From positions 11,718,001-11,782,000 of the forward strand of contig JBHGNT010000010.1 in the NCBI GenBank assembly GCA_043228905.1: a stretch of 64,000 nt of DNA. The letters run 5' to 3'. The notes beneath the pieces were generated by a model. It was not told the DNA's origin, made no database searches, and saw nothing but the letters and a program-made list of their open reading frames with translations. The translations under genes were made by a program, and so were the position numbers. Below, one piece after another: positions 1,461 to 61,978 of this stretch; the first letter of the stretch is position 1; the number at the start of each line of letters is the position of its first letter. The stretch comes from Azolla caroliniana (taxonomy: Eukaryota > Plantae > Polypodiophyta).

Positions 1461-4400
1461 CAAGAAAGAAGAGTGCGTGGATTGCAAGGAGAAGCAACAT
1501 GTGTCACACCTAGTGGCGCATGTAAACTAGTACTACCCGATAAGAAGCACAAGCGCCGGATACAAGAATTCGAGAAGATGTTGAAAGAAGAGAACATAAT
1601 AGAAGAAGGAGAGTTTGTGACTCATATTATGGAAGAAGCCTCATTTAACGACACCATCGGCGAAATCGAGGACGTCGTGGACTTGAGCTATCTTCACAAC
1701 CAACGCGTGATTTCGGTTAACTCCGTCAACATGTACGCTATCATCGATGAATACCATCGTGGCATCTCGATGAAGGAAGCTGACATCAACACGAAATATA
1801 AAACGGTGGATAAGAAGATCAAGCCAGTTGCGGTTCCACTACCGGAAGATAGCTGGCAAAAGATGAAGGAAGTCGCTAACGATCCAAGCTTAAGAGATCC
1901 GAAGAAGATAGGTCATGTCTTCACCAAAGAGACGAAGGGGAAGCTACGAGTTGGAAAGGAGGATTTCCTTCTCCCCGAAGAGGACTGAATGTTTCACGAT
2001 ATGCTTGAGAGACATGGGAAGGCTTTCGCATTCTTCCCACGAGAAATTGGATGCGTCGACCCAAAGGTTATAGAGCCGATGGTGATCTTCACGGTGCCTC
2101 ATGTGCCTTGGAATTTGAAACCGATACCGGTTCCGAGAGCACACCGTCCGAAGCTGATCGAGCTCTTAAAGGAGAAGGTGAGTATGGGAATTCTAGAACC
2201 GTCGAATGCTCCTTATTCCAATAGGTGGTTCATGGTGCCGAAGAAGAATGGATCATTGCGATTCATCCAAGATCTTCAACCCGTCAACAAGGTGACAATT
2301 CGAAATGCCGGAATCGGTCCGAGCGTGGACGAATTTGCCGAAGCGTTTGCGGGCCGGTCCATCTACTCCATTGGCGATCTCTACTCCGGATATGACCAAT
2401 TCCAATTGGCGATCGACAGTCACGACATTACAACCATGAGGACTCCGATCGGGCTTGTGCGGATGTGTACCTTACCCCAAGGCGCAACGAACTCGGTGGC
2501 TCATATGGTGAATGCCATGAATAAAGTCTTGAAGGATTGCATTCCGGACATCACGATGCCATTCTTGGATGATATTCCGATAAAAGGATGTTTGGATGAG
2601 GAGAAAGATGAATCGAAAGATAAGGAAGATTGTAGAAAGTTCGTTGCGGATCATATGAAAGATTGCGAGAAGGTGCTTCAAAGGCTCGAAGATGCGAATT
2701 TGACATTTTCGGGAGAAAAATCCGCATTCGGGCAACCGGAGATCTTGGTGGTAGGTCACTTGTGTGGAGCATATGGCCGGAAGCCCTCGCCATCCAAAGT
2801 GAACGCAATCCAAGACATGAAAGAAGAATGCGAAAACCAAACGGAGGTTCGAAGGTTCCTTGGAGCGTGCGCGTTTTATCATATATGGATTCCTCACTAC
2901 GCTCATGTCGCCGAACCGTTATATGGACTACTAAAGAAAAGAATAAAGTTCGAATGGCGAGACGAGCACACAAAGGCTATGCAAAGATTAAAGAAACTGC
3001 TTCTTGAAGCTCCGGCACTAAGGAACGCCGACTATGCCGAAGGGAAACCAATTTATGTGACCGTAGATACGAGCCCAACTGGAACCGGGTGGGTCATCAA
3101 TCAAGAAGGCGAAGATAATGCGCGATATGCCATCCGGTTCGGAGCAAAGGTTCTCAGCGAACGGCAACAAAGATATGCCCAAGTCAAGCGGGAACTTTGG
3201 GGTATTGTGTCGGCAGTGAAGACGGACAAAGATTACCTGATCGGGTCAGAAGTGATAATAGAGACAGATTGTCTCCCAATTCTCGGAATGGTCTCGGGAT
3301 GTGCGACCCCAGATCTTGCTATGCTAAGGTGGATCGCCTACATCAAGTCTTTAAACCCAGAGATCCGTCACATTGCAGGGAAGAAGAACGCCATGGCTGA
3401 CATGCTGTCGAGGGCAAGATTTTCAAATGGAAGTAACATGATTTCGGAAGATGAAGATGTCGCCCTCGACTTCTTCAAGATGGCTCGATTGTCGGCGAAA
3501 GATCAGGACACACAAACCCTCCACGCCTTCAACGAGAACGAGTACGAAGGGGAGTGGTTACTCATCGGTAGATTCCTAAGAACATTGACGACAGATGCTT
3601 CGTTGACAAAGGAGGAGGCCCTACGAATCCGAAAGAAAGCTTACCAATACTTCTTGAAGGGAGGATTCCTTTGGCGACATCCAAAAAGAAGGACAGGAGT
3701 ACCACGTCCAGTGGTGGTAAAGAAAGAAGAGCAAGAGACGCTGATGACCGAATTCCACGAGAGTGCTTGGGTAGGTCATAGAGGAACATGGGCGACATTC
3801 GAAAAGTTGAAGGAGAAGTACTGGTGGCCAAGCATGTACAAAGATGTACTCCATTTCGTGTCCACATGCGAAACTTGCCAAATATATTCAAATATACGTC
3901 ATCGTGATGAGTTAAAGCCGACATACCCACTCACCATACACTTCAAATGGATGGTGGATCTGGTCTCGATGCCAATGGGAGTGGGACAAATGAAGTACTT
4001 AGCGCTAGCAAGGGAAGACTTGACAAATCAAGTGGAAGGACGAGCCTTGACAAATAAGACGACTTCAGCCGTTTGCAAATTTCTACTTGAAGATGTTGTT
4101 TGCCGATATGGATGTGTAGGGAAGATAGTGGCCAACCGAGGGGAGTTGGACGCGCACGAAGCAACGGAGCTCTTCGAAAGACTAGGCGTGAAGCTCTCCC
4201 TCACGACTGCCTACAATCCGGAAGCAAATGGGAAGATAGAGCGAGGGCATGGACCTATCGTTAAAGCCATCGTACGGGCATGCAACGGTCGAGTCGGGAA
4301 TTGTCCACAACTATTACCCTATGCCTTGTGGGCCGATAGAACGACACATAGCTCGGTGACAGGGTATAGGCCGACGGAGCTTATGTATGGACAAAAGCCG

Positions 4401-4892
4401 ATTATGCCCATCGAAAGGACGATCGCCTCATGGGTAGCGATACCGTGGGAGAACGAGATGAGCCGAGAAGAGTTATTAGCGGCGCGGATAAGGCAACTTG
4501 AAAGAAGACCTGAAGATTTAGAAAAAGCGCGAAAGATGATGAAGGCAGCCCGAGTAAAGAACAAGGTTCGGTTCGACAACACGCATCGACTTCGTCCCAA
4601 GAAGATTGAAGAAGGGGATTGGGTTTTGGTTTACGACAACACCCTTCACAATCAACACAGTACAACAAGGAAGTTCGCAAGAAGATGGTTCGGGCCGTAT
4701 GTGGTGACAAGTGCCAACGATAATGCCACATACCACCTTGCGGAACTAGACGGATCAAGATTGGCCGTACCCATTGCGGGAAAAAGAGTAAAGATTTTCA
4801 AGAAAAGACAAGACAAGGATCCTGACCTCGATTACCTCGACGATGAACATAATAGGGCGGATGTAAATGAAGACATGGAGGAATCTAATTGA
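1404..4892 (+). pseudogene. pol: Pol (RT-RNase H-integrase) in the -1 frame, with one premature TGA at 1986-1988
   Basis: RT (GDLYSGYDQ, PQGATNS, FLDD), RH (VDTSPTG, ETDC), IN (H..H..C..C zinc finger, AYNPEANGKIER, WFGPY). ORFs 1473-1988 and 1989-4892 are in the same frame. Confidence 0.93.
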
Positions 4893-4964
4893 TCATCGTA
4901 GCTGAAATCTCACTTTCTCTCTTCTTTGCACGTACCAGAGGACGTGCGGTTTGGTGGGGGTGGA

Positions 4965-6139
4965 TGTCGTGAAGATTTTCGGCAATAGTGTGAAAATCCC
5001 ATAAAATGTACGAAATCGAGTATGAATCACGTAATACAATAATTGTGAAGATAACATTTTAAACAAATTTAATATCTAAGTACAAAATGATGGAGGTTTC
5101 GAATGCAGTTTATTACACGAGAAACGGACAACTAAATGTCAAGATATTAGGGTATAAAGTTTTTGAAAGGAAAAGAGAAAATTGTGAGATATCCCACATA
5201 GGCACGACAAATACGGCTCTCATCATATATAATGTAGAGCAAAAGATATTATCTTTGCGTCTATGTGTGGAGCATAGAGAGTTCAAGGTAACTTGAACTA
5301 AGAGTGGAGGTGGGCTAGCTACTCGTAAAGGGTTTTGGTTGGCCAAAACCGGACCGGCGATGGAACTGGTGATCCGGCGGCAATCCGGCATCCAGCGAGG
5401 CACCGGTAACCGATGACATTCGCCGCCGGCACCGGTATCCGGCGCCGGTCAGACGACGGAATCCGGCGAGGCACCGGTAATCGACGGCATCTGGCACCGG
5501 CACCGGTAAGACGACGGCATCCGGCGAGGTACCGGTAACCGACGACATCTGGCGGCGGCACCGGTATCCGGCGACTAGATAAATAAATATATAAATATAT
5601 ATACATATATACAAGGAGGGCAAGTAAGGATTCGAACCTTGCACCTCCAAGTTAGGAGTCAATTGGCTTACCATTAAGCCATGCTATTTAGTTCAAATTA
5701 TATTTCTATCATTGTACTTTTACATGTAAATTCTCATACATGAGAGCTAAAATGAGTGACATGGTTATCATGCACCACATGTAATACATAAGCGCCAAAT
5801 GGCAAACATGCAATTTATGCATGTCTTGTACCCTCACATGCATCATATGCATGAGAGCATCTATAAAAGAAGGAAGGGAGAGGAGAAAAAAAACTTTTTG
5901 TTTTTATGATGAAATTAAGAAGAAGAAATTCGTTATCAAATTGATGGTGTAACTTGTTTCTTAAATCCAAAGATAAAAGTTCAATCAATCTCTCTCAATC
6001 ATTTAATCTCAACTTCTCTCTTTCCCAATCAATCTTAAGTACTTTCTCGCCAAAGCTTATACCAACTTTGAATCCTTCCGGTCCAGAACCCCGGCGGTTC
6101 CGCCTCACAATCCGCGTGTAATGACGGATCTTCACGACA
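4965..6139 (+). repeat. 3' LTR (1175 bp)
   Basis: 12-bp terminal inverted repeat TGTCGTGAAGAT...ATCTTCACGACA, preceded by a G-rich PPT; contains CCGG-rich tandem repeats at about 5350-5575. Confidence 0.92.
5616..5686 (-). other. tRNA-like Pol III type-2 promoter module inside the LTR
   Basis: Minus strand TGGCTTAATGGTAAGC (A box with D-stem GCTT/AAGC) ... AAGGTTCGAATCCTT (B box/T-arm) at tRNA spacing; no acceptor stem. Confidence 0.7.
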
Positions 6140-28611: not shown

Positions 28612-30681
28612 ATAAGCGGATTGGCCACATCAACTTCCGAAAGCTTCAGGAGTTGCAATCGAAACACATAGTTTCCGGATTGCTGAAAATTAGTGGCCGG
28701 AAAGGCCAAATATGTCAAGCTTGCCACCTCGAGAAGGAGGATAGGCTTCCGTTCCCCAACGAGAAGAATCAGAGCCGGAATTGGGTCGATCTTATTCATT
28801 TGGATGTGCGGGACTGGCACAAAACATGAGCATCGGCGGGAGTCGGTATTTCATCTACTTCATCGATGATTTCAGTCGACACACTTGGATCTATTTGATC
28901 GAGAACTTTAATCTCTCATGAGGACCGCAATAAAGTAATACGCCAAGACATATGTAAAATTTACACTCGGTATAAATGGATCACCCCACGAGAGCCACTC
29001 CCAACTAAAATGTTGTACTATAAGGAACACTTCATGCACTTCTCTGAGTTAGGTTTTATCACGCGGCCAAAATATCTAGATGTATTCTTACCACATGCAC
29101 TAAGGGTTGCCATTGGACAACTTAGAATATCATCTCACCAACTTGAGATTGAGAATGGCCGTACTAATGGAGTCCCTAGGGAGGGAAGGATATATAGGTT
29201 ATCTCACATAGAGATAGAGGATGAGTATCACTTTACATGCAAGTGCCCAATCTACGCCGAGATAAGGGAAAAATACCAAGACATACTTGGTTCCTCTCCC
29301 ACCCTCCCCAAACTATTAGATACTCTAGATATAAAGAAATTAGGCAAATACATTCTAGACCTAAAACAACACAAAGAGAATAAGTTACAAAATGTTGACA
29401 ATAATGTTGCTAATGTTCACCAACATGTAACAAATGAAGTTTTTCAGGAACAAGGGGAGCCAACAAACACACTTGCACCACTCGTCCTTTCCCTTCATGA
29501 GGCAAAAAACCAAAGAAGAACCAGACGTCCTCGGGTGCCAGGTTTCAAAGCAACTCGACGTGGTGTGGAAGCAATAATGAAAATAAGGGAACGTGAGCTA
29601 CACCGCCTAGAAGCCATGGCTAGGGCACTCTCTACATTGGAACCATGGGTCACACCCACATCAAAACCCTTTGACCCCCCACTACTTTTCGAGAGGCTTG
29701 GGTGGAAATAAAATTAGGATTAGTGTAAAGTCACTTCCTTTATCGAGTATATCACGTATTGTACACTACTAGAACTCTTTTAGCTTAAGTTCTATGTTTA
29801 CTTTATTTTATTTTATTTATGATGACTGGATAAATACTCATTTTGTTGTAAACCAATTGTCTCATGGGCCAAATTTGGCCTTAGAAGACGTTAATATATC
29901 TTTCTTTCTTTCTTTCTAGCTTCCAGGACCTAAAGAATCATGTAGAGCTAGAAACCAGAAGGAAGATTTAGTGCCTGAGATCAAATTGCGTGAAAGAGCA
30001 CTTTTCCGGATAGTTCACTAATTATATGCAAACCACGGGAATTCGCCGAGAGTTCTCCTGCAGATACACGCCGGAGAAGAACGGCATGGCCGAACGTCGA
30101 ATCGGACGTTGGTAGAAGCGGGGAGGGTAGTGCTGGAGGAGAAGAGCATGCCTCGGATTTATTGGGCTGAAGCAATTCAGACAACCGTCTACATACAGAA
30201 TCAGATATCTGCCTTAGGGACAAAGGTGTGGTCACACGAACTGTATTTTGAGTAGAAGTCGAATTTGGCGCACCTTTGGGTATTGAGCAAGATTGCATAT
30301 GTGCATGTGCCGTATGAAAAGTGGAAGAAATTGGATGCAAAATCGAAGAAGTGCATCCTGCTTGGCTACTTCGACGAGCAGAAGGGGTATAAGTGCTACA
30401 ATCCCCGTTCAAAGCCAATCCAAGTTAGCCGTGATGTCATCTTCGACGAAACAACATCTTGGTACCTCAGATCACCCGAACCCGAGCCGATTACTTTGGA
30501 TGTGTTGCAGAAACCAAATGACCGGATAGCCCAACTTCCCTCTGGATCCGTGGATCGAATCCAGATTGGTTGAGCTAGAGCGGTCAACCAGATGACAAGC
30601 CGGCGAGTAGCGAAGACTCGGTTGTGCTCTCCTCACGCAAGGAACCAAGGAGACAGTTCACGTGCAAAGAGAAAGGGAAGA
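28612..30681 (+). pseudogene. Continuation of the copia integrase from 6140-6887, split by a LINE
   Basis: FIDDFSRHTWIYLIE then, after 29916, ..KLDAKSKKCILLGY..KGYKCYNP..VSRDVIFDE. Confidence 0.88.
28906..29916 (+). mobile_element. 5'-truncated non-LTR retrotransposon (RTE-X/L2-like C-terminus) with a (CTTT)n tail
   Basis: ORF 29010-29711 has LRISSHQLEIENGR...IEDEYHF..KCPIY, the C-terminal zinc region of LINE ORF2; 3' tail tctttctttctttctttct; no TSD, short host deletion. Confidence 0.8.
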
Positions 30682-31151: not shown

Positions 31152-34100
31152 TGTGAATGTTAATGTGCGGAAGCGTCAGACAGAACCGGCTCTGCCGAAT
31201 AGCAACAAAAAATGAGATGAAGGTTTAATGGAAAAACTAAAAACACAGAGGAGACAGAGAGAGTAGAACATACAACTATATTCAAAAAATTAACTCTAAA
31301 ACTCTATACATACAACGTGCTAAACAACAGTATTTATACAAGTCCATAAAGGACTCATAGAAGTACTGATAGGTACTTCAATGCTCACACGTGCGACTGA
31401 CACTAACTATGAGACAATGATTACCTAGTACTCTAGGCTACTATTAGGATTCCGGTTCCCGCTCGAATCCGGCTCTCCGATCCGGCCGGTTGTTTCCAGA
31501 TACCGATCCGGCTCAAGCTTGTTCACCCGATCCGGATCTGGTTGAGCTTGCTCGCTCAACACTCCCCCTCAAGCTCAACTTGAGGTTGGATCGTGCTGTT
31601 AGTGTCCGCGCCAGCCGGTTCTTCTACCCGTCTCCTTCTGGCGTTGCTCCGCCTTGCTCGTGTTCCTCGTCCGATCCGGTCTTGTTTGTCGTGACCCTTC
31701 TGGTTCTGTGCACTTTGACCTCCTTGGTCGGCTTGTTTGTTCAACAGGCCCATTTCAGCTCCTTTGCTACTACGACTCCGGCACTTGTTGACCCGTCGGT
31801 TCCTTCGTGTTGGCCTCGACTTTCGGTGCGTCCGTGTCCGCTTGGCCTTTAGTTGATCCGGCTTCCCCGAATCTTGAACCGAATCGGTTTCCTTCGATTC
31901 GTTCCAGCTCTTGTCCGAGTCGGTGTTCTCCAACTCGTCTTCCGGTTTCAAGCCCTTCACCACACCGAACCACGTCCAAGTCTTGGCCATTTTCGTCTGG
32001 TCGGCTCTGTCCTTCTTGACTCTGCCGCTGCTGCCGCTTGTTCTAACCTTTTTGGATATGCCGACTCCTTCGGTTGGCTCGTCCGATCGGCTCAGTCCTG
32101 TGCCATCCGTTCCCTTTCCTTTTCTCCCCCTCAAGTGCGGCACGTCGAGGTGCTGAACACCAAGCATTTCGGTGAAGTGCTACAACTTGTCCGATCCGAG
32201 CGGTGTCGTGTGAATCTTCACATACTATGTAAAATATAATGAAATAAGTATTTTAGATTAGATTAGTAGCTTGTTATAGAAAGATGGATGTTTGAGAAGA
32301 AAGGGAAATTAGAACTATGATTTATCCCACATAGATAAGAAGTTTGACAAGAAAGGGAAAATTAGGACTATGATTTATCCCACATAGATAGGAAACTTAA
32401 GGCATTCGCTATATAAGTACCTTGAGATCGCTCATTTTTTCATTTGTGTTTAGAGCACTTTGGCCACTTTGTCTAGAAGGATGAATGTGGCTAAGTTCCC
32501 AAAACCGGCTGGCAATAAAATGGAACCGGCCGGTAATGGGAACCAAACCAGAACCGGCCGGCAAGCAAACTAGAACCGAAACTAGCAAGCAAACTGGAAC
32601 TGGCCGGCAAGCAAAATCGGAAACGGGCCAGCAAGCAAAATCGGAAATCGGCCTGCAAGCAAAATTGGAAACCGGCCGGCAAGCAAACCGAAACCGAAAC
32701 CGTCCAGCAAGCAAACTAGAAGCGGTCGGCGATGGATTCAACGATCAGGTGGAACCGGCTACCGGACGAGATTGGATCATGCAACGAACTAAAGTAAAGT
32801 GAAGAAAACTAAAGTAAAGGCCATGTGGACACAAGCAACTAAAGTTGGAGTGCATGCATAAAGTAAAGGTGATGTGGAAGGTGTGCAACAAAAGGTGGAG
32901 ATCATGCAAAAAGTAATAAATAAAAAAACGTTATGTGGAATGCATGTAAGTGTATGGGGGAGAATAAGGAAAAATCCATCAATCAAGAAGGGGGCTATCA
33001 CTCATAATTCCTAATTTTCATACGGGGGAAGGAAGCTATCTCTCAAGAAAACCATAATTTCCATACAGAAGCAATCTCTCTAAAAATCCTAAATTCCTTA
33101 GAAAATCCATCTTACTCATAACCCTAATTTTCCATACGGAAGCTATTCAACTCATAAAACCATAATCTCTTATCAAAGCCAATAACCCTAAATCTCTATG
33201 GAATCCATATCTTAGTTTCTTCTAATCTATTATTCTAGTAATCTCCTTAAGATAAAACTTTTGTAATCCCAATCTTGGGATTAATTGTAATCTTTCCTTC
33301 TACTTGTTAATGAAATTTGTTAATCTTTCTCATTTCGGTTAATTCTTAGTACATAAATACACAAATTTGATATCCTCTAGTCAAAGGCCCTGGGGTCTTG
33401 CCTCAACGTTCATGTATCCTCATCGTATTTTTGCGACAGCGGTTTGGTGAAGATATCGGCAATCTACCGATCCGTCTGAACATACCAAAGTTCTACTTTA
33501 CCGCTCAAAACCCGCTCACGCACAAAGTGATAGTGGACTTCTATGTGCTTCGTCCGAGCATGGAACATGGGGTTCTTGGCAAGCTGAATGCTGCTCATAT
33601 TGTCACAATAGAGCAGGATCGGGGTCAGTACCTCAATCCGTAGGTCTTGCAGCAGTCGTCGAAGCCAGATGGCTTCACAAGTGGCATTGGTAGCGCCCCC
33701 GTACTCAGCCTTAGTGCTCAACAAAGCCGCTATTGGCTGCTTTTTGCTCCTCCACGCAACAGTCGCGCTACCTCGAGAAAACATGTAACCGGAGGTGGAT
33801 CAACGATCCGATACATCTCCAGCCCAATCGGCATCGGTATATCCGACTAGCTTCCCAGCTATACCGTGTCGGTATAATAGTCCTCGATCCTTCGTGCCGC
33901 TAACATACCGGAGTATCCGATTTGCGCACTGAAGGTGCTCGATGGTCAGCCTTTGCATGAACTGGTTGATCACTCCGACCAGGTAATTGAGGTTGGGTCG
34001 AGTGATTGTCAAGTAACTTAGGGTTTCGACGATTTGTCGGAACCGTTTCTCATCGCAAGCCGGTCTGGAGTTGGGACAGAGCTTCTGGTTCCGGTCCAGG

Positions 34101-38233: not shown

Positions 38234-40520
38234 GAGCTATTGTTTCTAATGTTTCTAAATTTGTTGGTTTTTGTTTTCTTCTTGATTGATGGTGATTGAT
38301 TGACGTGTGGTCAACCTTGATCCAGATAACAATCAACAAAGGATGTTTATATTTACTTGTATTTTTATTTTCTTATTCTTTCTTCTCCTAATCTAATCAT
38401 GTATAGTCAATATGTGTTGTTTTTCATTGAGTCAATGATGTTGTAGTGGTAATTAATTGGTTGTATAAAATGTTTACATATGTGTATGAGGTCAATACCT
38501 CATTTGACATATATTTGATATGTGATGTGTGTCGTATGCGTACGAGGTTAATACCTCAATTGCATATTACGTTCACATACATGTTATGTATGTGTATGAG
38601 GTCAATACCTTGATTTCTAAGTAAATGATATACGTTTGGTGTCGTATGCGTAAGAGGTCAATACCTCAATTGCGTATTAAGAGTAACCCTTATTATTGGA
38701 TGTTTCGTGTGCGTAGAGGCTATATGCATCGATTACGTGTCTTGATTTCATCATATGTTGGCTATTTGATGTTACGATTTTTTTTAATATACGCATATGT
38801 GGTCACATGTATACATATTTGATTGTATGTATGTGATAAATATAAATATGTGTATGCTAGTTATAACGTAATTTCTATATCGAATGTTGTCCTTTTCGAG
38901 GAAAGGATCTTGGTGGCCATCCTCACATTTTTGTGAGAATGGCGTAGTCACCATCCTTTTTTCAACAATCTTTTTTGTTGACATCCCCGTTGGTCACTTT
39001 GATTTCGTTACATAATGAAACGATCATAGCCACAATGATGGTGAGAACGTAGGGCTTGACCCACTTCATGTGAGGTCCCTCCTAGGACACACATATTCAA
39101 CATCCCTCCCTCATTACGTGGATATGTTGCCACCATGAGATCATTCTTACGAAAGGCACTCGTAATGACGTAACCATGTGATGGGCCACGTGGGCCTACT
39201 ACGAAAAGAGGGCTCATTTGGCTTGACCATTAAGTTGCACTTTGGCCTATGCCATCGTAATTATGAGACTTGAGGTTAGGTAACGTATGAACATCTTGAC
39301 ATGTATGTTTCTTTTAAAGAAAACATATATGGGCAAATGCCTCGCATATCTCTTATACACATAAAACGTTAAACATTCAACACGAGCAACCTATTTGATT
39401 AGCTCAAGTGTTTAATCCATTTGTTCTTGAGGTCTCAAGTTCAAATATGACCAAGACCATACAACATTGTTGATACATATGACTATAATACGTGTTTAGA
39501 CTCTAGGTCTAATTGCACTTTGGGGTCCTCGTAATAGGACTTAAAGAGCCGAAACCACATACGTCTGCACAGAAACATAGTTTATTGTTAACATGTTTTT
39601 CGTGTATAAACTATTCATGACGCGAACATACATGGTTGAGCCTCGGGGAGCTGCCATGAAAACAATCGATATAGAGATAAGGGAGAGACATTCATTTGTC
39701 ACCCCCATGGTTTTTAAAACACCTTTGTGTTACCATTGTAACCTAATCTTGAACCTCATCTCATATGTCTAGAGGGTATTGACGTGAGATCATGATATCG
39801 ATTAAAGTTTGCCCGTGATATGTTTACATCACGACATGATGTTATGACTATTTGTCTGACCTTATCCTATTTCTTTGCCAAAAATAATCATTCAATAGAT
39901 TGGAATAACGACCCGATGTCATCCGCTCAAGCGGAAGGAACTCAAGGAAATCCTCCTGGACCAATGTCCATTGAGTTGTATTTTTTACAAATACAACATT
40001 TCCTTAGTTCAACTGCGCATCAGATGTCCGAACTTTGGCAATCTCAAAGTTCTCTCAAGGTACGTGTCATTAGTTTACAACGTGAGACTAATATACCTGA
40101 TGAGCGTTAGGGTGAACCATCATTTGTTGTAAAGCCATTTACAGGAGAAAAAAGGAAAGAACCGAAGAAGCAATTTGCACGTGGCTAGGCCGATGGGAGT
40201 CTCATTTTGAGCTCTATCCCACGCCAGATAGTGTGAAGATTGCATATGTCGGTCAAGAACTAGGGGGTAAGGTCGCCGCCTGGTGGCGTGGGCTCCGAAC
40301 TTTGGGGAAATTGCCCAGACCTGGACAGATTTTGTCACAAATTTCAAGGGCCAATTTCTGCAACCTCCATCTCGAACCGAGGCAGATAAGCATTAATGAA
40401 CCTCTCTAGCCGAAAATTTTCTTTGCTAGAAGACTATGTCCACCATGCTAGAACCCAAATCCAAAAATCGGGTCTAGAATGGGACAATTGGTTAATAGCT
40501 TGTTTTGTCAATGGCATCCC

Positions 40521-43507
40521 TGTTATCCGTATAGGCGTACAGAGGGATAAGGTGTATTGTGTATGGTCTAAGGTGTTTAATGTATACGAGTATGTGTGAG
40601 CACATGCATAATTATGTGCATGAGACAAGAATGTAATGGTCTTCTTTGTGTAACGATCCTATTAACTGTTACATTATGTACAATAAAAACCCCTTCTGGG
40701 GCACATAATAGATATAGATTTTTCCCCTTGCATTCAGTGTCATTTTCTATTTGTCTTTCTCTCACGCGCTCTCTCTAACTTAACCCCTTGGGAGGGGGCT
40801 TCAGCCCCCACCCAACAACACTTTTGGCACGTCCAGTGGGACGACTCTCCCCTGAGAAGAAGTCACGTCTCCCTCCCTTGTTCTCCTTCTCCAACACTAA
40901 TCTCTCTCTCTCTCTCTCTCTCTCTCGTTGCATCTCTGTGTTGTGTGTGTATCTCTCCCCTAACTCGGAAGAAGAAGTAGTGGAGAAGAAACGCAACAAC
41001 AACCTGGAATGTTGCAATAGCCTCGAAGAAGCACAGATCTATCCAGCAACAGAAAGAAGAATCATGCATGAGTGAAATTTGCATACTAGAGAAGAATTAG
41101 AAACTTGCACAAAACAACTCAAAGACGAAGTGGATATATATCAACGGAAATGGAAGAAGATGAAGTGGTAGAGCCTTTCTTAGAGTTTATGGCCAAAGAT
41201 GGAACATGGTATGCTGGCACCGCTACCTGAATAGGCCCATCATCAAGTGACATGCCTGTTCATTTCTTGCACTAGTCGGAGGATGAAGATGAGACATGGC
41301 ATCCTCATTCTTTAAAATACTCTTATCATGTTGATGCCATGATCCACCCTATCATATTCATGCTCATGTTGTTCCTTCCTTTTCCTCACTCAGTTTGAGA
41401 GACAGTGTAGCGTGCCCATGGCGACCTTCACCTCCATCTGCATTCCCTCTGCTGAAGCAGATGCTGGTGATGGTTATGGCGGTAGTTATGGCTCTCTCGA
41501 CTCTCCGAACAACCATTACTCTCTCTCTCACCTCCAAAGCCCTTCCGCTTTCCCTTCATATCTCTCCGATGAAGACAAACTCCAATACAGTCAGATCGAT
41601 CCGCTTAGATGGGATTGCATCTCCGATGATCTCCATGGTTTGAGTCCTCTCTGTTTCCTATGTACATAGGAAGATTTCATGGACGGAAACCCTAGATCAC
41701 CCAAATGATGGATGCGAAGCATTATCTGTCAAAGAAGACACATTGGGTGAGGATATAAACGACAATCCCCATTCCATCTAATTCCTGCTCCATCATGTCC
41801 AATCCATGTTTCTTCAACAACAGAGGATATTCCTTCTCTCACCGTGAAAGGTCAATCTGTTCCACTTGAAAGGTCTCCAGGGTCAGTGGATAATACTGTG
41901 TATCATATTACTAATGATATTTTGCCAGATAGATTATCACAAGCGAATGCATGTATGCAGCATCTTCCATCTATGTTGTACACTTTCCTTCCAAGTGATT
42001 CTCATCAGTGTGGCACAGTGGATTCCATTTTAATTCCACCCTTGCATTTCCAAGAAAATATGTGTGGTCATGCATCATCATTCTCTTGCAATGATCATTT
42101 CCTTGATGGTTGTGACCTTATATGCTCTTGCTCCATCCCTCAATACCTCATTATGGCCAATCTTTTGTTAGTTGAATCTCTTCAGGGATTGAAAAGATTT
42201 TCCGATAAAGATGTTCCCTTCACTACAACCTGGTGGGCATGTAGAACACATTATGCACATCAACGGATATTAGCAGAGCCATCATCAGCAACAACTACAT
42301 CATCACCACCACAGCCAGCTCCAACAATAATTGCATCCATTCTCGAGAGCTCTACTCCTACCATCACTGGCAAGGACAATTACAACATCTTCAGCAGAAT
42401 GGTCCTTGAAATCAGCACCGCCATCGCCATCGCTGTTGTCGCCATCCGCCAAAATCAAAAGTATGGATGCCCACTGAGTAGCTCAAAACTCCAAGAGCAA
42501 CAAGAAGCCAAGCAACAACTGAGAGGAAAGAAGACCGAAAGGAATAAGAAGATGAAAGTAGACAGAAAGAAAGGAAAAGAAGCTGAAATTAGAAAGCATG
42601 GAGGATGAAAGGAAGAAAACAAGAAGATGAAAGCAGATGGTAACTACTACCATCACCAACACCACATAGGAGAGAGGGCATACAGAGAAATCTCCACAAA
42701 CAGACAGAGAATAAAGGAAGAAAGAAGAAAAGTAGAAAAGAAGAGACTTAAAATAAAGAAGGGATGACATGAGAATTATAATAACTCGAGGGCACGCAAA
42801 CAAATTTCGGAAACAGAAGGGCAGGACACGAGATTTCTAAAACCGGAGGGTACTTAATATAATTTTAAGGAAGAAAACATATCTATATCTATATATAAAC
42901 ACCCACATACACCCACAATTACTGATAAACCTAAATGACGATACCACATTGGATAAGACTATTGGTGTGTGATCCAATCATGCGATTATGCTGACTGAAC
43001 GAGAAGGTTTGTGTCAAGCCAGCTCTAATCGAAGTTATCGATCGTCGAGTAGTAATCCGGTCGAGGAATTTCCGACCGTGAGAGAAGACCGTTGGATGTC
43101 CGGTCAACAAGAGTTTTTCGGTAGGGGCTTGTGGGTTCGACGTGCAATGCACTATCCCACAGGCATGACAGGTGTTATCGGTATTGGTGTACGGAGGGAT
43201 AAGGTGTAATGTGTATGGTCTAAGGTGTTTAATGTATACGAGTATGTGAGGATGAGTATGTGTGAGCAAATGCACAATTATGTGCATGAGACAAGAATGT
43301 AACGGTCTTCTTTGTGTAATGGTCATATTAACCGTTACATTATGTACTATAAAAACCCCTTATCGGGCACATAATGGATATAGATTTTTCCCCTCATTTA
43401 GTGTCATTTTCTATTTGTCTCTCTCACGCTCTCTCTCTAACTTAACCCCTTGGGATGGGTGTGAAGCCATTCTAGGCTAGAATGGCTTCACCCCCCACCT
43501 AACAACA
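40521..43507 (+). mobile_element. Non-autonomous LTR element (LARD/TRIM-like, 2987 bp)
   Basis: LTRs 40521-40820 and 43173-43507, TSD ATCCC, tRNA-Arg PBS 40825-40842, no recognisable gag/pol. Confidence 0.92.
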
Positions 43508-49026: not shown

Positions 49027-49530
49027 TATCATGAATAGATGAAACCCCATGAGGTTTAGGGTGACTCGAACCCCATGACCCCCTCAAGAGAAGCAATCAG
49101 CTCTAGCCATTAGGTTATATATGTTGTACATAAAGATATTATAATTTACTTTATTATAATATTGATAATGTAACCCTATAAATATCCAAAGGGTGCCATG
49201 ACCCTTCTATATCCCAAAGGGTGTGATGACCCTTCAATATCCCAAAGGGTATCATGACCCTACAAACATCCAAAGGGCACATACTACTCCTATATAAATA
49301 GGACATATTGTATTGTTAGAACCATTTGGTTCAACACCAGTCTTTGGCAAATATTCTAGTTCTTACTCTTGTATATTTTCCTATTATAATAAAATATAGT
49401 CATTGTTCTCTCTTTCTTTTCCTCTCTTGTTCAATAGACTCTTTTGTCAAGCTAAGGCCTTGACAGTTTGAACCGGAATAAGAAAGATACAGAAGGAGTT
49501 TTGGAAAATCAACCAGCCCACCCCCCCACT

Positions 49531-51743: not shown

Positions 51744-53349
51744 TGTTAAGATTTTGGTCCCTCCGGATGGGATGATGAAGGCCCGGTGAGAACCGGATGA
51801 TGAGTACCCGGCAAGGAAGACCCGGTGAGAACCACTCACCGGATGAAGGGACATAGATGTCAATATGTTTTTGTTAGCCCATTGTGGCTATATTTGTAAA
51901 TAGCCCGAAGTCATATTAGTATAAAAATGACCTAGGGAAAACACGATTATTGTGGTTGTCATTATTTTTTGTAGAGTGTTATTGGTGTAAGTGTTGTACA
52001 GAGCTTAGTAGAGAGAGATATAGAGACAGAGACAAAGTGAGTATCTGCTGTAACCTCCGTCAGGCGAAGATTGTGAGCACGAGGTCATTGCCTCTATGTT
52101 CCCCTGTTGTATTCCTCTCGACATAGTGATAGTTTGGAGTCTGTGGGCTCCCGTGGTTTTTCCCTCTCAGGGTTTTCCACGTTAATATCTTGTGTACTCT
52201 CTTGTTTACACTGTTTTGTGTATACGTACATCTATCTCCACATTCCCAATTCTGTGTTTGTAATTCTCAAAGAAGTGATGGAAGACTCGGTTGTGGTTGA
52301 GCATTATTCCGCATATTCTTTTCAATCTGGTATCAGAGCGAAACGACACAGAAAATGGAAGATTCATTTGGCGGGCATGTTCAAGCTCACCGGCTCCAAC
52401 TACTTAGTCTGGAAGTCGAAGATGAGGGACATGCTAGTGGTTAAAGATCTTTGGTTGTCAGTTCAGTTCGGGGACATGAGACCGGAGAAGATCGATGCCA
52501 CAGTGTGGGAGGTAATGCACATGAAGACAACGGTATAAATCCAGTGTTTCATCGACATGAGCTCGTTTGCCAATTTCAATGAAGAGAGCAAGGCTCATGA
52601 GCTATGGGAGAAGATCAGCATTATGTTTCAGAACAAAAATGTTGTTAATCGGGTATCGGTATTCCGGAAGCTAGTAAGACTCCGGTACCAAGATGGCTCC
52701 AGCATGGTGGAGCACATGAATGCCTTCTAGGGACTGATTCACCAGGCAACATCGTTGGAAGTACCTCTCGCCGATGAGGTATTAGCATTGCTCCTGCTTG
52801 GTTCCCTCCCAGATAGTTGGGAGACGTTAGTTATCACTTTGGGCGACGTCGGGCCGGAAGGAAAACAGTTATCCCTAGCAAGAGTCAAGTCGAGCTTGCT
52901 AAATGAGGAGGCTTGTCGAAAAGACAAGGACACAAGCTCCAACTCGAAAGTGCTCCTTAACGAATCAGAATGCGGAAGACAATGGAACCGGAGTCCCCAG
53001 AACCGGGAAAAGTCGGGGACACGGTCAAAGTCAAGGGGAAGGCCCACTTGCTTCTACTGTGGGAAGCCGGGGGCACTTCAAGAAGAACTGTCGGCATTTC
53101 CGGAAAGACAAGGAAACCGACGGTACCGATTCGAAGCGGTCACCGGACCGGGACGGTAAAGACCGGAGGGGATCAGACTGGAAGGGAATGACGGTGTCGT
53201 AGTGTAGGTTGCACACTATGTGGAAATTATATTTTTGTCCCTCCGGATAGAGAATGGAGTGCTCGGTGAGAACCGGAAGAAAACGGCATACCGGCAAGGA
53301 AGAGCCGGATAAAGAGACATAAATGTAAAAGAAAAAAAAGAAATACTCA

Positions 53350-53420
53350 ATGCGCAGGGCGTGATTCGAACTCTACACCTCCACGTTGACAAACCCCAAC
53401 CTTACCATTACATTAACTTA
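53350..53420 (-). other. tRNA-like A/B-box module in the LTR (second copy at about 59795-59865)
   Basis: Minus strand TAATGTAATGGTAAG ... GGAGGTGTAGAGTTCGAATC, followed by an oligo-T run; homologous to 5616-5686. Confidence 0.62.
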
Positions 53421-53951
53421 TCTTAAGTGTTTTAAATATAGATTTAATATGTATAAGACCTTTATTTATGCATACCTTTATTAAAAGGTAAATCGTGTAT
53501 TTTTTTAATATATGAAAAAGACGAGACACCAAAAATAACTCATGCACATCTAGCGTGCATGAGCCCTATACTTAGGAAATAAAAAAGCATCACATGCACA
53601 TTTAGTGGACATGAACACTTTTTGTAAAAAAAGCATGAAGCCATGCTTAGCTCTTCCTTCCTTATATAAGGAGGAGAGAAATATGTAAAGGGTTGTTGAT
53701 TATTTGGGATTAAGGATTAATCAATACATAAATTATTCGTGGGATTCACGATTTATACATCTACTTCTCTCTTAACACCCTAAGTACCAATTAATATAGT
53801 ATACTCGTGTGATTCACGAGTTTCTTATCTTTCTCTTTGCTATTTACTCATAATTAATCTCTATCTCACGAACTTCTTTCTCCTAGTCCAAGACCTCTGT
53901 GGTTCCCACCCGACTCACGCAACGATCCGGAGCCGAAAGGCACGACACAGT

Positions 53952-53969
53952 TGGTGAACCCGACGTGAA
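53952..53969 (+). promoter_or_regulatory. Primer binding site, tRNA-Trp
   Basis: TGGTGAACCCGACGTGAA, complementary to the plant tRNA-Trp 3' end (..TTCACGTCGGGTTCACCA) as I recall it. Confidence 0.85.
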
Positions 53970-53985
53970 GACGGGTGGCAAGGAG

Positions 53986-56025
53986 ATGGAGGCTCAACAA
54001 GCTAACAATATGATGGCGATGTTCGAACGGATGCTTCAAGAACAACGCACGATGTCGGAGATTTCGGCATCAGTAGAGCGGCTCGTGCAACGCAACGGGC
54101 AATTTAATGGTAAGGATGTGTCGCGATATTTGCAGGACTACAAGGCGGAGATGCTCCGGTGCCGGGCTTCGGAAGGACTGCAAGTGACATCCTTTAACCG
54201 GGTGGCGACCGACGGGCTTCAAGGGAGTATCCACGGGTTGCAACAACAAAATCCGACGTGGGAAGCATTCGTAGAGGCGTTAAAGACCACGTTTGCCATC
54301 GAGGACTCCTCCAAGGCAACGCGGAGGGGATTCGAGGATTGGGTGGAAACGTCAGGTAAGGGGCTGAAGGTCCTCGAAGTGTTTTCGACATTCGAAAGTC
54401 GGTTCGGGAGGTTGTCCGCGAGAGATCAAACTATTCTTGCACCGGACAAAGTCATCATGTTTTTGCGAGCTGTGGACGTCCGGGACCGGAAAGATCTCGG
54501 AGTGCTTCTTGAGGACACGACCACCGAAAGCGGCCTCACCGAAACATGGGAAAGCGTGCGGGATATCGTCGCGCGGTACACGAAGAGGGGGCAATGGCTT
54601 GCCAACGAAGAAAAGAGGGTTTCGGAACCGATTCCGAAACCGAGAACGGGACTGGAAGACCATCAACCGAGGGCTCGGGAGATTACGGCCGAGAAGGGAG
54701 TCGACGCGTCTACGGTGGAGCAGCTGCTGAAGGAGATGGAGAATCTAAAGATCGCGATGGTGAAGAAGTCGGATGACCACCCCACAAGCTCCAAATATAC
54801 GGATCGACGGTGCATATGGTGCGATAGCGCCGAACACGATCGGAGGGATTGCGACGACCATAAGGAGGCGCTACGACGGGATCTCATCTACTACGAGGGA
54901 AACCGGATTCATTCGATGGACTCTCGGAAGCCACTCCGACCGAACTTCCGGAAAGGCGGCATGAAGAAGGTGCTCGAGGAGGAGTTAGCGGCAAGAAGCA
55001 ACTATGCGACAACCGCGGGAATATGTGTCGGGGAGTCATCGGGAGCGAAGGCGTCTTTCTGGCCGGAGGTGCTAGGAAACACCGAGAAAACCGACTCCAA
55101 CGATATCCGAAACACCGCGGAAGGCGTCCGGGAAGCTACGGGATGGGAGTGCCCTGTCGACAAGAATAGCATATACGCCCTGTGTCAATTACATGAGGTG
55201 TATGTGGACGAGAAACGACGGCGCACGGAGGATGCGGCCGGACCATCGAAGATACCGGAAAGCTGGAACTCCGGAGGTAAGGGAAAAGAAAAGGCGACTC
55301 CGGCATTCAAGCTCGCCTCGGACATAGAACAACAAACCGACTTGAAAAGAGTGTTCGAGGAAAGAATCTTGGATAGCCGGGTAGATTTTTCGCTGCGGGA
55401 ACTACTCGGAATAGCGAAGAAGGAGTTTCACGATCTTCTCGTGGATCTCGTGAAAAGGAAGAGACAAAGTACGGAGGAAAATGCTCCAAGGGTGAATGCA
55501 AATACCGTTTCAATGAACGACACCGAAGTGGAAGGCGAAATTCCGAACTCCCACTATACAAGGCCACACTGGGCACGTGCGACTACGGAGACTCCGGTCC
55601 GAATCGGCAACATCAAAGAACCCGTGCTAGCATTGATTGATCACGGATCGGAGATCAACTTGATGTCCAAGGAGTTCTACCGAAAGGGGAAGTGGCCTAT
55701 AAACACCAACCATGGATGGAAGATTCGGGCAGCCACGAAAACGACAGAAGACCTATTTGCTACTTGTCCGGATGTGACGGTAAAGATCGGGGATGTCGAA
55801 ATTGACCAAAATTTCTTTGTGCAGGATGAGGTTTCACATTCTGTCATCCTCGGCCAACCCTTTATCACGGCTTCACGGATGGAGACGAAGGTGCTCGATA
55901 GTGGTGCGGCTTTTGCGCGAATTCGGAGCCAAAACGGAGGGAAATCCGTCCAATTCCTAACAGTGCCGGCAAATCACGAAAGGAACAAGAGGGAACTCTT
56001 GTCCCAAGTGAGAATGGATTTTTAA
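53986..56025 (+). CDS. gag: ORF1 Gag-protease
   Basis: First ATG after the PBS; FNGKDVSRYL, zinc knuckle CIWCDSAEHDRRDC, protease LIDHGSEINLM/ILGQPF. Confidence 0.93.
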   Translation: MEAQQANNMMAMFERMLQEQRTMSEISASVERLVQRNGQFNGKDVSRYLQDYKAEMLRCRASEGLQVTSFNRVATDGLQGSIHGLQQQNPTWEAFVEALKTTFAIEDSSKATRRGFEDWVETSGKGLKVLEVFSTFESRFGRLSARDQTILAPDKVIMFLRAVDVRDRKDLGVLLEDTTTESGLTETWESVRDIVARYTKRGQWLANEEKRVSEPIPKPRTGLEDHQPRAREITAEKGVDASTVEQLLKEMENLKIAMVKKSDDHPTSSKYTDRRCIWCDSAEHDRRDCDDHKEALRRDLIYYEGNRIHSMDSRKPLRPNFRKGGMKKVLEEELAARSNYATTAGICVGESSGAKASFWPEVLGNTEKTDSNDIRNTAEGVREATGWECPVDKNSIYALCQLHEVYVDEKRRRTEDAAGPSKIPESWNSGGKGKEKATPAFKLASDIEQQTDLKRVFEERILDSRVDFSLRELLGIAKKEFHDLLVDLVKRKRQSTEENAPRVNANTVSMNDTEVEGEIPNSHYTRPHWARATTETPVRIGNIKEPVLALIDHGSEINLMSKEFYRKGKWPINTNHGWKIRAATKTTEDLFATCPDVTVKIGDVEIDQNFFVQDEVSHSVILGQPFITASRMETKVLDSGAAFARIRSQNGGKSVQFLTVPANHERNKRELLSQVRMDF

Positions 56026-56079
56026 AGCGGACTGTTGCGGAGTGGGGAAGTGATAGTCCGAGAAGCCCTGATACCCCAC
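56016..56079 (+). promoter_or_regulatory. Predicted -1 frameshift signal (GGATTTT plus pseudoknot)
   Basis: Slippery site 56016-56022; stem 56028-56038/56050-56060; GTGGGG 56042-56047 can pair with CCCCAC 56074-56079. Confidence 0.82.
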
Positions 56080-59000
56080 ACAGGAAGAAAACTCTCGGAG
56101 CAAAACAAGTACGAATCGGCCCGGATGGGGCATCTACGTACACGGCCGTAACCAGAGGAATGAAGAAACAATACCGACAAGTGGAGGATAAGTTATGGTC
56201 GGCATCAATAATAAAAGAAGACGAAGAAATCGTGGGAGTGATCGAGGAAGTGTTCTATGGGAATACACTACAACGGCTTGAAGAGCTTGCGGAAGATAAA
56301 AGCCAAGGGAACCGGGTAGTCCCGGTGGAATCGTTCGAGATGTACGAGATCGTTGCGAAAATGGGGCCGGATGCGCTCCGCAAAGAAGAAGCAATGGTAA
56401 GTACGAAATACAAGACCGTGGAGAAGAAGGTGAAACCGGCCGCGGGACCACTACCTGCCGATAGCGAACAAAAGAAGAAAGAAGTCTCAGGAGATCCGAC
56501 ACTTCGGAAGTCCGTGGATATCGGACATGCCTTCACAGATGAGACCCGGAAGAAACTTCGGATCGGTGGAGGTGGGTTCCTCTTACAAGAAGAAGAAAAA
56601 CAGTTTCGAGAGATGTTGGAGCAACATGGCAAAGCATTCGCGTTCACATCGAGGGAGATCGGATGCATTGATCCAAAGATAGTGGAGCCGATGGTGATTT
56701 TCACGATTGATCATGTACCGTGGAACCTGAAGCCGATTCCGGTGCCACGGGCGCATATTCCGAAAGTCATCGACTTGCTCAAGGAGAAGGTGGCGATGGG
56801 GATTCTAGAGCCATCAAGTGCTCCATACTCAAATCGATGGTTTACGGTTCCGAAGAAGAATGGGTCACTCCGATTCATCCAAGACTTGCAACTGGTGAAC
56901 AAGGTCACGATCCGGAACTCAGGAGTCGGTCCGATAGTGGACGAATTCGCGGAAGCTTTTGCCGGACGTGCGATATACTCCATCGGGGACCTATACTCGG
57001 GGTATGACCAATTCCAACTAGCCGTGGAGAGCCGAGACATCACTACCATGCGGACACCGATAGGACTAGTTCGAATGTGCACACTACCACAAGGAGCGAC
57101 AAACTCGGTTGCACATATGATGAACGCGATGAACAAGGTGCTTCGAGATTGCATCCCGGAGATAACGATGCCGTTTCTAGATGACATTCCGATGAAAGGA
57201 TGCGCGGTGGAAGAAAAAGATGAGACTATGGATGATCGGGGATGCCGAAAGTTCGTGGTCGACCATATTCATGATTGCGAGAAAGTGTTGCGAAAGCTAG
57301 AAGATGTGCACCTAACACTTTCCGGGGAGAAATCGGCATTCGGGCAAGAAGAAATATTGGTGGTCGGACATCTATGTGGACCCTACGGCCGAAGACCGTC
57401 ACCAACAAAGATCGATGCGATTCAAGCTATGAAGGAAGTATGTGAGTCAACATCGGAAGTCCGAAGGTTTCTGGGTGCGTGTGCATTCTATCACATATGG
57501 ATTCCGCACTATGCACATATAGCGGACCCGCTCTATCACTTGTTGCGGAAAGGTAAGAAATTCGAGTGGAAACCGGAACACACTAAAGCCATGAGGAAGC
57601 TCAAGAAGACACTATGGAGGGCGGAATCACTTAAGAAGCCAAGCTACGAGCGGCCAATCATAGTAACGGTTGATACAAGTCCAACCGGTATCGGGTGGGT
57701 CATCAATCAAGCCGACTCGGATGGTTCGCGGTATCCGATCCGATTTGGAGCAAAGGTCCTCAACGAAAGGCAACGCGGATATGCACAAGTCAAAAGAGAA
57801 TTGTGGGGAGTCGTGTCGGCGATAAAATCGGATCGGGATTATTTGATCGGAGCTGAAGTGGTGATCGAGACGGATTGTCTTCCGATACTCGGGATGATGC
57901 GGTGTTGTACGATACCGGATGTGGCTATGCTAAGGTGGATTGCATATGTCAAGTCACTTAATCCGGAGGTTCGACACATCTCGGGGAAGGACAACGCGGT
58001 AGCGGACATGTTATCGAGGGCGCGGTTTGAAGACGACATAACCGAATCAGATAATGAAGAAGTTTCCGAAGACTACTTCACGTCAGAACACATATGCCGA
58101 GTGAACGTGATCCGAGAATTCCGGGAAGAAGAATACGAGGGGGAAACCTTGATGATCGGGAAGATGCTACAAGAGGTCGAGGATTCAACCAATGATAAAG
58201 AAAGGAGAGCCGAGATCCGAAGGAAGAAGAGGCAAGTCCAAAAGTTCTTCTTGGAAAACGGTTTAATATGGAGGACGCCGAAAAGACCGGATGGGATACC
58301 ACTTCGAGTAGTCGGGACGAAAGAGCAACGAAACCGGATAATGTCCGAGTTCCACGAATCCAATTGGGCTGGACATCGAGGAACATGGGCAACTTTTGTG
58401 AAAATCAAGCAAAGATATTGGTGGAAGAACATGTATAAAGATGTCGCGGAGTTCACAGAAAGCTGCGAGAAATGTCAAGTCTACTCCGGGGTCCGACACC
58501 GAGATGAGCTGCATCCGACATTCTCACCGACAATCAACTTCAAGTGGATGGTCGACATTGTAGCTATGCCGACCGGGATTGGACAAAAGAAATACTTGGT
58601 GTTAGCTCAAGAAGATCTCACAAACCAAGTTGAAGGTCGAGCGCTTCGGAGGAAAACGTGTGCCGCGGTGTGCCAATTTCTTTTGGAAGAAGTGTTTTGT
58701 AGGTACGGCTGCGTAGGACAAGTGATTGCGGACCGGGGAGAACTCGACTCGGACAAAGCTAGGGGATTCTTCGCCAAACATGGAGTTCGGTTAACGTTGA
58801 CAACGGCCTACAATCCGGAGGCCAACGGGAAGATCGAACGAGGACATAGTCCGATCGTGAAAGCACTTGCGAAGGCATGCGACGGAAGGGTGAAGGATTG
58901 GCCACAAATGCTTCCGTATGCACTATGGGCGGATCGGACGACGCATAGCTCCGTGACCGGTTACATGCCGGCAGAACTCATGACCGGACAAGCACCGGTA

Positions 59001-59627: not shown

Positions 59628-61394
59628 GTTGCACACTATGTGGAAATTATATTTTTGTCCCTCCGGATAGAGAATGGAGTGCTCGGTGAGAACCGGAAGA
59701 AAACGGCATACCGGCAAGGAAGAAAACGGCATACCGGCAAGGAAGAGCCGGATAAAGAGACATAAATGTAAAAAAAAAAAGGAAATACTCACTACTGCGC
59801 AGGGCATGATTCGAACTCTGCACCTCCACGTTAACAAACCCCAACCTTACCATTACATTAACTTATCTTAAGTGTTTTAAATATAGATTTAATATGTATA
59901 AGACCTTTATTTATGCATACCTTTATTAAAAGGTAAATCGTGTATTTTTTTAATATATGAAAAAGACGAGACACCAAAAATAACTCATGCACATCTAGCG
60001 TGCATGAGCCCTATACTTAGGAAATAAAAAAGCATCACATGCACATTTAGTGGACATGAACACTTTTTGTAAAAAAAGCATGAAGCCATGCTTAGCTCTT
60101 CCTTCCTTATATAAGGAGGAGAGAAATATGTAAAGGGTTGTTGATTATTTGGGATTAAGGATTAATCAATACATAAATTATTCGTGGGATTCACGATTTA
60201 TACATCTACTTCTCTCTTAACACCCTAAGTACCAATTAATATAGTATACTCGTGTGATTCACGAGTTTCTTATCTTTCTCTTTGCTATTTACTCATAATT
60301 AATCTCTATCTCACGAACTTCTTTCTCCTAGTCCAAGACCTCTGTGGTTCCCACCCGACTCACGCAACGATCCGGAGCCGAAAGGCACGACAACGGCAAT
60401 CGTGGCAAGTGAAGAAGAGTTGATGCTCATCACCGAGGAGAGTGAGTTGAACCTTGCCGGCGACGAGACAACGTGGGTTGTCGATTCCGAAGCGTCATTC
60501 CACCTTACCCCGGACCGGAAATGCTTCTCATCCTAACATGTTCGCATTCACAAGTGGAAGGATTGCGCATTCCACTTGTAGAGTCTTCTTGAAACTATCC
60601 AAATATACCCTCTCTACAAAAATTGGATGCACTATTATCACATGTTCCACAACTTGATTACAATTTGCAAATATAAAAATACATGATAGGTCTACGAGTG
60701 GAGATCATTAGAAATCATGCAAGTTTGGACGTGTTGATAAGTTAATGTAGGCACAATAAAGTTCAACAATGGCTTAATATGTCACTAATGTGCGACATGG
60801 GAAACACTAAGTTAAAGACTTATATTAATTTGGTAAGTTTTACAAAAATATGAGGTGTACTTGTATCCATACTAATAAAATGAGTTCTAATTTATACTTT
60901 GACCCATGCGTGCATGTATATAATGGTGGACAATGTAGGATAGTGCACTTTAGGATAATGTGATTGGAATAACTAACTTATTAAAGTATTCAATACTTGT
61001 ATTTAAAGTTGATCTAATCTATTCCTTAGTTTGGTCGTATGGGATCAAACCATATGTATATAATTGTGGACAATGTAAGACAGTGAACTTTAGGATAATG
61101 TGGTGGAAATAAGAAACCTATTAAGGCTTTCATACTTGTATTAAAAATTGATCTACTCTATTGCTTAGGTGATTCACACAGGGTCAAACTCCGAACGATA
61201 ACACTAGTGGAACTACAAGCGTATAAAAACATGCGGATAACGCTAGTGGAACCATTATCAACACACTACACAATCTAAGCAACAATGGAATAGAAACATA
61301 ATTGTTTTAACAATAGAAGACAAAGATCCATAATAACAACATGGACAGTCATGGCAACAGTTCTATGACCATGTTATGTTAAGGTAAACTTGGA

Positions 61395-61932: not shown

Positions 61933-61978
61933 ATGCTAAAACATATTTACAAAAATGTCCACAGTGTCAGAGGCTTAC

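Follow-up and report, generated by a model that had tools for sequence, protein, structure and literature searches.

Results

tRNA-like modules in the LTRs of nested Gypsy elements

The LTRs of three Gypsy retrotransposons in the window (the whole 64-kb stretch of DNA that was analyzed) carry A and B boxes at tRNA-like spacing, located in U3 and on the minus strand. We consider it quite plausible, though short of probable, that this module is an optional, orientation-free DNA site for TFIIIC or Pol III, kept under weak selection, that would aid the Pol II promoter of the element.

The annotated window is a nest of LTR retrotransposons, three of which (E1, E2, and E3) host the modules. E1 has a 967-aa pol frame that is open at 1989-4892, a broken part upstream of pol, and a 3′ LTR at 4965-6139 (plus strand) with 10-nt inverted ends and a polypurine tract (PPT) before it; RT, RH, and INT domains gave Pfam matches. 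E2 (53195-60392, 7198 bp) is the only one of the three with both ORFs intact (712 and 1241 aa, both open). Its 5′ LTR (53195-53947) and 3′ LTR (59615-60392), both on the plus strand, show four differences over 752 aligned sites, and the element is flanked by the TSD ACGG (53191-53194 and 60393-60396). The E2 primer-binding site at 53952-53967 (plus strand), which we take to be that of tRNA-Trp, is found in identical form after many related LTRs. E3, whose 5′ LTR (about 49027-49465, plus strand) interrupts a Copia copy, is decayed and truncated and was cut before the integrase.

E2 has a 4-nt NCGN TSD, a tRNA primer site, and a pol region that fills the interior, with no chromodomain match. The Phygy clade of Physcomitrella, which prefers a 4-nt NCGN motif for insertion, shares this TSD, the tRNA primer site, and the non-chromovirus layout with E1 and E2 (Neumann et al. 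2019, PMC6317226). By TSD, primer site, and domain layout, E1 and E2 were assigned as Phygy-type non-chromovirus Gypsy elements; named integrase homologues belong to a liverwort genus, to a fern, and to Chara. The RT of E3 is 22% identical to that of E2, no tRNA primer site was found after the E3 LTR, and its named RNase H homologues come from a fern, an amphibian, and a fungus. Compared with Tcn1 (PMC2864245), these properties fit a Tcn1-like, chromovirus-type Gypsy element, the clade inferred for E3. Together, these affinities make a moss the likely host of the elements.

The E1 module lies at 5628-5681 on the minus strand (A box 5681-5671, B box 5638-5628, gap 32 nt) and has no mismatch (0+0) to the A- and B-box consensus sequences against which all modules were scored. 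The E2 modules, also on the minus strand, lie at 53362-53415 in the 5′ LTR (A box 53415-53405, B box 53372-53362, gap 32 nt, T8 at 53339-53332) and at 59807-59860 in the 3′ LTR (A box 59860-59850, B box 59817-59807, gap 32 nt, T11 at 59780-59770), each with 2+2 mismatches. The E3 module, on the same strand, lies at 49062-49117 (A box 49117-49107, B box 49072-49062, gap 34 nt) with 1+1 mismatches. TATA-like motifs, taken from the sequence as predicted Pol II core promoters, were found on the plus strand at 5861-5869 in the E1 LTR (179 nt beyond the A box), at 53663-53670 in the E2 5′ LTR, and at 49291-49298 in the E3 LTR.

Sites with at most 1+1 mismatches occurred twice in the 64 kb (E1 and E3), compared with a mean of 0.02 and a maximum of 1 in 100 shuffles. 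There were six sites with 2+2 mismatches, compared with a mean of 1.39 and a maximum of 5 in shuffles; judged by the consensus only, the E2 sites do not reach significance. A profile built from 28 modules of other loci, with the window excluded, matched the first three sites (E1 and the two E2 LTRs; E 7e-18, 5e-8, and 1e-6). All four predicted minus-strand sites were thus confirmed above chance, E1 and E2 by the leave-window-out profile and E1 and E3 by the shuffles. The gaps are 1 nt below the spacings of 33, 33, and 35 nt first proposed because box B is taken here to begin one base earlier. The same profile missed the E3 module, which was also not the best match of the E3 LTR with the E1 or E2 LTR in a 50-nt comparison. 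These sequence comparisons detect no homology between the E3 module and those of Phygy type, and a second capture is therefore likely.

The E1 LTR may contain a second, decayed module in the sense orientation at 5934-5988 (plus strand), 73 nt after the TATA-like motif (−9.9 bits, not significant alone). At this position, two other loci (L043 and L077) have a scoring module (16.4 bits), and an LTR in L079 has a stronger one; in all three, it is an extra sense module after the TATA-like motif.

All four substitutions between the E2 LTRs fall within 50 nt over or just behind the module (53339-53388 versus 59780-59833; chance about 0.001); all are A/G transitions, with small indels adjoining. Such clustering could reflect recombination or gene conversion of this patch, or hypermutation acting locally on the module. 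An unannotated AT-rich region that belongs to none of the three LTR families contains a degenerate tRNA-like stretch, its gap shortened, at 39396-39446 (plus strand; E 0.15 with the leave-window-out profile) and, facing the opposite way, a lone B-box-like motif at about 39050-39075 (minus strand).

The module is a family-level feature that can be deleted

Among the 10 E1-like LTRs that could be aligned over the region, nine have the module within matching sequence. In the remaining one (L055), the 3′ trailer of the module is retained while the boxes and approximately 130 nt beyond them are gone, and this LTR therefore represents a deletion rather than an empty site. The integrase end of L055 is 95% identical to that of E1, and its contig is deeply covered. 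In contigs of three runs, the E1 module and the next flank had similar depth (444,817 and 340,800 versus 500,791 and 433,296 in one run), depth being no measure of copy number.

The E3 module was spanned by contigs from runs with two different organism labels. Among the 40 differences listed for the E3 family (78 more exist), none fell in the 22 box positions, and eight fell in the 34-nt interior; some copies have a 1-nt deletion, which shortens the gap to 33. A run presumed to be RNA, a guess as to its nature, gave one contig against E3, on the Copia flank only.

The module is patchily distributed among Phygy-type LTRs

Relatives were sampled blind to the module by scanning metagenome contigs with the Phygy polypurine-tract pattern. 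This gave at least 122 loci, most of which share one naming series and probably one sampling campaign. Thirty-three of the 122 listed loci were dropped, mostly as chance matches; about six of them resemble Phygy ends that failed the filter, and one of these (L003) lacks a module over 1881 nt of LTR side. The 73 LTR starts of at least 230 nt were placed in 44 groups by the similarity of their first 300 nt, which is a crude grouping (L098 and L099, for instance, share a contig).

In the loci listed, the module was present in 18 of the 44 groups (approximately 40%), antisense in 13 and sense in five, and absent from 26, of which 16 had at least 400 nt of LTR in view. The claim that the modules are antisense thus holds for the four window modules and most groups and fails for the five sense groups. 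The claim that coding-competent elements keep the module is too strong, given the 26 groups that lack it and its deletion in a close E1 subfamily (L055). The module is not missing from most copies within the E1 family, whereas most Phygy groups do lack it.

The modules sit in U3, and where a TATA-like motif was seen (10 of the 19 modules listed), it lies 132-262 nt beyond the module, which agrees with the predicted cassette upstream of a Pol II promoter. Two modules were found in L013/L037. All profile matches in the fetched Phygy loci fell in LTRs or cut LTR pieces, and the four inspected matches away from the anchoring LTR all lay in other Phygy LTRs. Sense and antisense modules occur in neighboring branches of an integrase tree, which has 36 rows of uneven and often short length and is too weak for counts of gain and loss.

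This patchiness, the two orientations, and the clean L055 deletion would be expected of a passive relic, that is, an old tRNA-derived SINE or tRNA pseudogene that entered an ancestral U3 a few times and now hitchhikes without function. The decay of the copies in L007 and behind the TATA-like motif of E1 points the same way, and Kojima proposes the insertion of a SINE into an LTR as the origin of Helenus TRIMs (PMC10886601). We regard the relic explanation as somewhat unlikely, and the evidence that counts against it comes from the conservation of the module.

Several module-bearing elements with Phygy ends (the 2360-bp unit of L052, the 1118-bp unit of L026, and the L008/L061/L072/L074 group) carry the module in antisense or sense orientation and have no integrase match before the PPT; some are in tandem. 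They may be non-autonomous derivatives and, possibly, intermediates on the way to Helenus-type TRIMs.

Spacing and boxes are moderately constrained

The gap was 32 or 33 nt in 29 of 34 matches (duplicates included) when gaps of 28-45 were allowed. In 11 hand-picked and related pairs of homologous LTRs, alignment breaks numbered three in 600 module nt and 64 in 1990 flank nt (p 3e-5), and all three module breaks came from one pair with an insertion. In 10 such pairs, the boxes differed at 39 of 220 sites compared with 47 of 172 in the interior (p 0.027), and the nine tRNA-invariant positions differed at 7 of 90. The box difference of 17.7% was not significantly below the 20.8% (432/2080) of the aligned flanks (p 0.33). 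Set against neighboring LTR sequence, then, spacing is kept and boxes outlast the interior, whereas box substitutions are not significantly fewer than those in the flanks.

Across 19 divergent representatives, mean pairwise identity was 0.62 in the A box, 0.75 in the B box, 0.38 in the interior, and 0.32-0.35 in the flanks, values that are partly ascertained by the search itself. The 9 nt before box B, which are not a standard promoter element, reached 0.64. As had been noticed for E1 and E2, the module is shared between LTRs that are otherwise hard to align: of 18 pairs of LTRs from different families, 10 had their best 50-nt match at the module (chance 0.06-0.11 each, the pairs not being independent), and the integrases of some such LTRs are approximately 65% identical while the rest of the LTRs cannot be aligned. 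C56 of box B, which is required for TFIIIC binding, was lost in 7 of 36 distinct modules. These comparisons of sequence indicate that the module is moderately constrained and dispensable.

The strong depletion of indels, the persistence of the boxes relative to the interior, and the survival of the module as the best match between such distant LTRs all argue against a passive relic. The C56 losses and the boxes that do not fall below their flanks in close pairs favor it.

The module has lost the fold of a tRNA and lacks the marks of a recent SINE

ARAGORN and Rfam called no tRNA in the window, and ARAGORN at default settings called none of the 36 modules. With relaxed settings, ARAGORN called 23 of 36 only at the 70% threshold, with inconsistent anticodons and no null, and these calls were not used. 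Cloverleaf cells were paired in 54.4% of cases compared with 52.8% in shuffles, and the anticodon stem in 38.7%. Covariation showed no excess in the cloverleaf (167 of 500 shuffles reached the observed value) or, above shuffles, in a shifted T-hairpin register. The earlier remark that acceptor and anticodon stems are not kept is therefore borne out, and a working tRNA gene is excluded by the lost cloverleaf, the missing covariation, and the absence of ARAGORN or Rfam calls. The E1-type module may resemble an arginine tRNA.

No TSD was found around the modules: the longest word shared by a module's own flanks averaged 5.7 nt, compared with 5.8 nt across modules (5, 5, and 6 nt for the window modules), and an old TSD could have decayed. 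Outside LTRs, the 64 kb contained only the weak relic at 39396-39446, the other loci having been chosen by their Phygy PPT. A recent SINE insertion, the source against which the module was to be checked, is disfavored by the missing TSD and by the single weak relic in the 64 kb; the module behaves as a feature of the family. The lack of a TSD and of any free-standing copy family in the window or the loci, the one relic aside, also counts against the passive-relic explanation.

A further explanation is that Pol III actively transcribes the module into a short RNA, which in most families would be antisense and which would tune silencing, act as a decoy, or be a source of small RNAs. Both boxes are present at tRNA spacing, Pol III cassettes in the U3 of bovine foamy virus (BFV) offer a precedent (PMC7693620), and 14 of 19 representatives have a T4 in the 60 nt behind the module, whereas none has an A4 there. 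However, shuffles of the same stretches gave a mean of 12.2 with T4, and 209 of 1000 reached 14. Of 25 U3s without a module, 22 have an A-rich plus strand. The terminator argument was dropped because an A-rich U3 alone yields T runs after antisense modules. Thus, the T runs noted behind the E2 modules are real (T8 and T11) and do not exceed what an A-rich U3 gives; E1 has no T4 within 150 nt of the module, and in E3 the first T4 comes at 128 nt. No conserved RNA structure or payload was found, and past the module the RNAs made from sense forms would bear no relation to those from antisense forms.

The trinucleotide CAA, a signature upstream of box A in plant tRNA genes (PMC3082873), lies in the 15 nt that precede box A in 11 of 36 modules and occurs in 2 of 36 control stretches. 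This excess would suit a Pol III unit and is a faint echo of the plant tRNA-gene signature. Taken together, we judge the Pol III RNA explanation to be improbable.

Discussion

A putative TFIIIC site in U3

How LTR retrotransposons remain transcribable within silenced transposon nests is an open question, and the modules suggest one candidate answer. A tRNA gene or the head of a SINE may have been captured into U3 at least twice, in the Phygy and Tcn1 types, and may have spread among families via descent, inversion, or U3 swapping, under weak selection that would act on the replicating family as a whole. The A and B boxes would serve as a putative landing site for TFIIIC, perhaps with Pol III, and occupancy of U3 could keep the Pol II promoter open inside heterochromatin. 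A TFIIIC site is proposed because the boxes and their spacing are kept, the fold is lost, orientation is free, and the predicted Pol II core promoter follows the module at a distance of 130-260 nt. The lost fold, the use of either orientation, and the absence from many sister families favor an optional landing site over a working tRNA. A DNA site also fits better than a structured RNA because both orientations occur in sister families and covariation is lacking. The points that weigh against the landing site are the 26 of 44 groups without a module, the L055 deletion, the nonsignificant difference between boxes and flanks, the C56 losses, and the additional conserved 9 nt.

The barriers of fission yeast offer a possible working model: tDNA and B-box elements next to heterochromatin block its spread in either orientation and need intact boxes (PMC2040200). 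Those barriers are host loci with demonstrated TFIIIC and Pol III binding, whereas the module described here is carried by a transposon and was read from its sequence. In the strongest form of this idea, two distant Gypsy lineages of autonomous plant elements would have independently captured tRNA promoters as portable, orientation-free insulators that shield the Pol II promoter in nests, in some families on both sides of the TATA-like motif. We consider this stronger version unlikely.

Another DNA-level role, such as tethering of the provirus or cDNA to TFIIIC sites, damping of the Pol II promoter, or attraction of elements that target Pol III genes, would leave a conservation pattern identical to the one from which the landing site is argued, and interference between Pol III and Pol II has been noted (PMC2040200). 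On the other hand, the Phygy insertion preference is for NCGN (PMC6317226), as in the ACGG of E2, with no sign of tRNA-gene targeting, and no insertions pile up at the four window modules. Such roles therefore appear very unlikely.

Relation to known elements

The Helenus TRIMs (TRIMp3; Kojima 2024, PMC10886601) resemble the modules most directly: tRNA-like A and B boxes lie in the LTR, conservation is centered on them, and there is no functional tRNA. Helenus elements are non-coding and 311-1263 bp long, whereas the hosts here are coding Gypsy elements of approximately 7 kb with a separate TATA-like motif. The Pol III promoter of Helenus is thought to make the element's own RNA, whereas most modules here face outward: the antisense orientation holds for all four in the window and for 13 of 18 groups, a placement that does not serve to produce genomic RNA, and several of the sense modules run into T stretches within 40 nt. 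In the main text of that study, Selaginella is the only plant host named, and moss does not appear. The study states that "not a few" Repbase LTRs contain tRNA-like pieces, of which TRIMs alone were analyzed, and expects the autonomous partners of Helenus to have different LTRs (PMC10886601). The modules suggest a possible source of Helenus-type TRIMs.

Cassandra TRIMs likewise have the promoter of a small-RNA gene in a plant LTR (PMC10886601). However, theirs is a 5S type 1 promoter in the sense orientation that drives the genomic RNA of a non-autonomous element, whereas type 2 tRNA boxes in either orientation are found here in autonomous lineages. BFV can be likened to the present elements in having a Pol III unit in U3, beside the Pol II promoter of a coding-competent retroelement, that is dispensable and advantageous (PMC7693620). 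Its cassettes make structured pri-miRNAs with demonstrated function; the module here has a tRNA-shaped layout with no conserved hairpin and is known as sequence. A search of a viral sequence collection gave no match to the module pattern or to either protein.

The openly accessible literature searched contained no description of tRNA-like modules in Phygy or Tcn1 LTRs; this applies to the accessible text of PMC6317226, PMC7466625, and PMC2864245. The available part of a maize LTR-promoter preprint (10.64898/2026.05.08.723830) has nothing on Pol III. If the insulating role is true, the module would be the first plant TFIIIC-type barrier on a mobile element within that literature. Because some families have this host Pol III promoter in U3 and a sister subfamily has lost it by a clean deletion, elements with and without the module can be compared naturally, and box B provides a two-base test. 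If the module is only a relic, the matter is one of annotation, with thousands of pseudo-tRNA promoter boxes riding on these LTRs.

Other features of the window

An LTR-like insert in a Copia copy at about 32228-33440 has a GC-rich repeat tract and a 3′ end that resemble those of E1, and it lacks the module. A tandem array at 61350-61940 consists of a 51-bp palindromic unit and folds into long hairpins. Two ORFs of 270 and 285 aa (28899-29711 and 41751-42608, both on the plus strand) have no Pfam match and lie in transposon-rich surroundings. Directly before the PPT (about 4929-4964 and 59576-59614), a short inverted repeat is conserved in nearly all of the approximately 89 Phygy-type loci listed, at coding and non-coding loci alike, and it is possibly a cis-signal for plus-strand priming or packaging.
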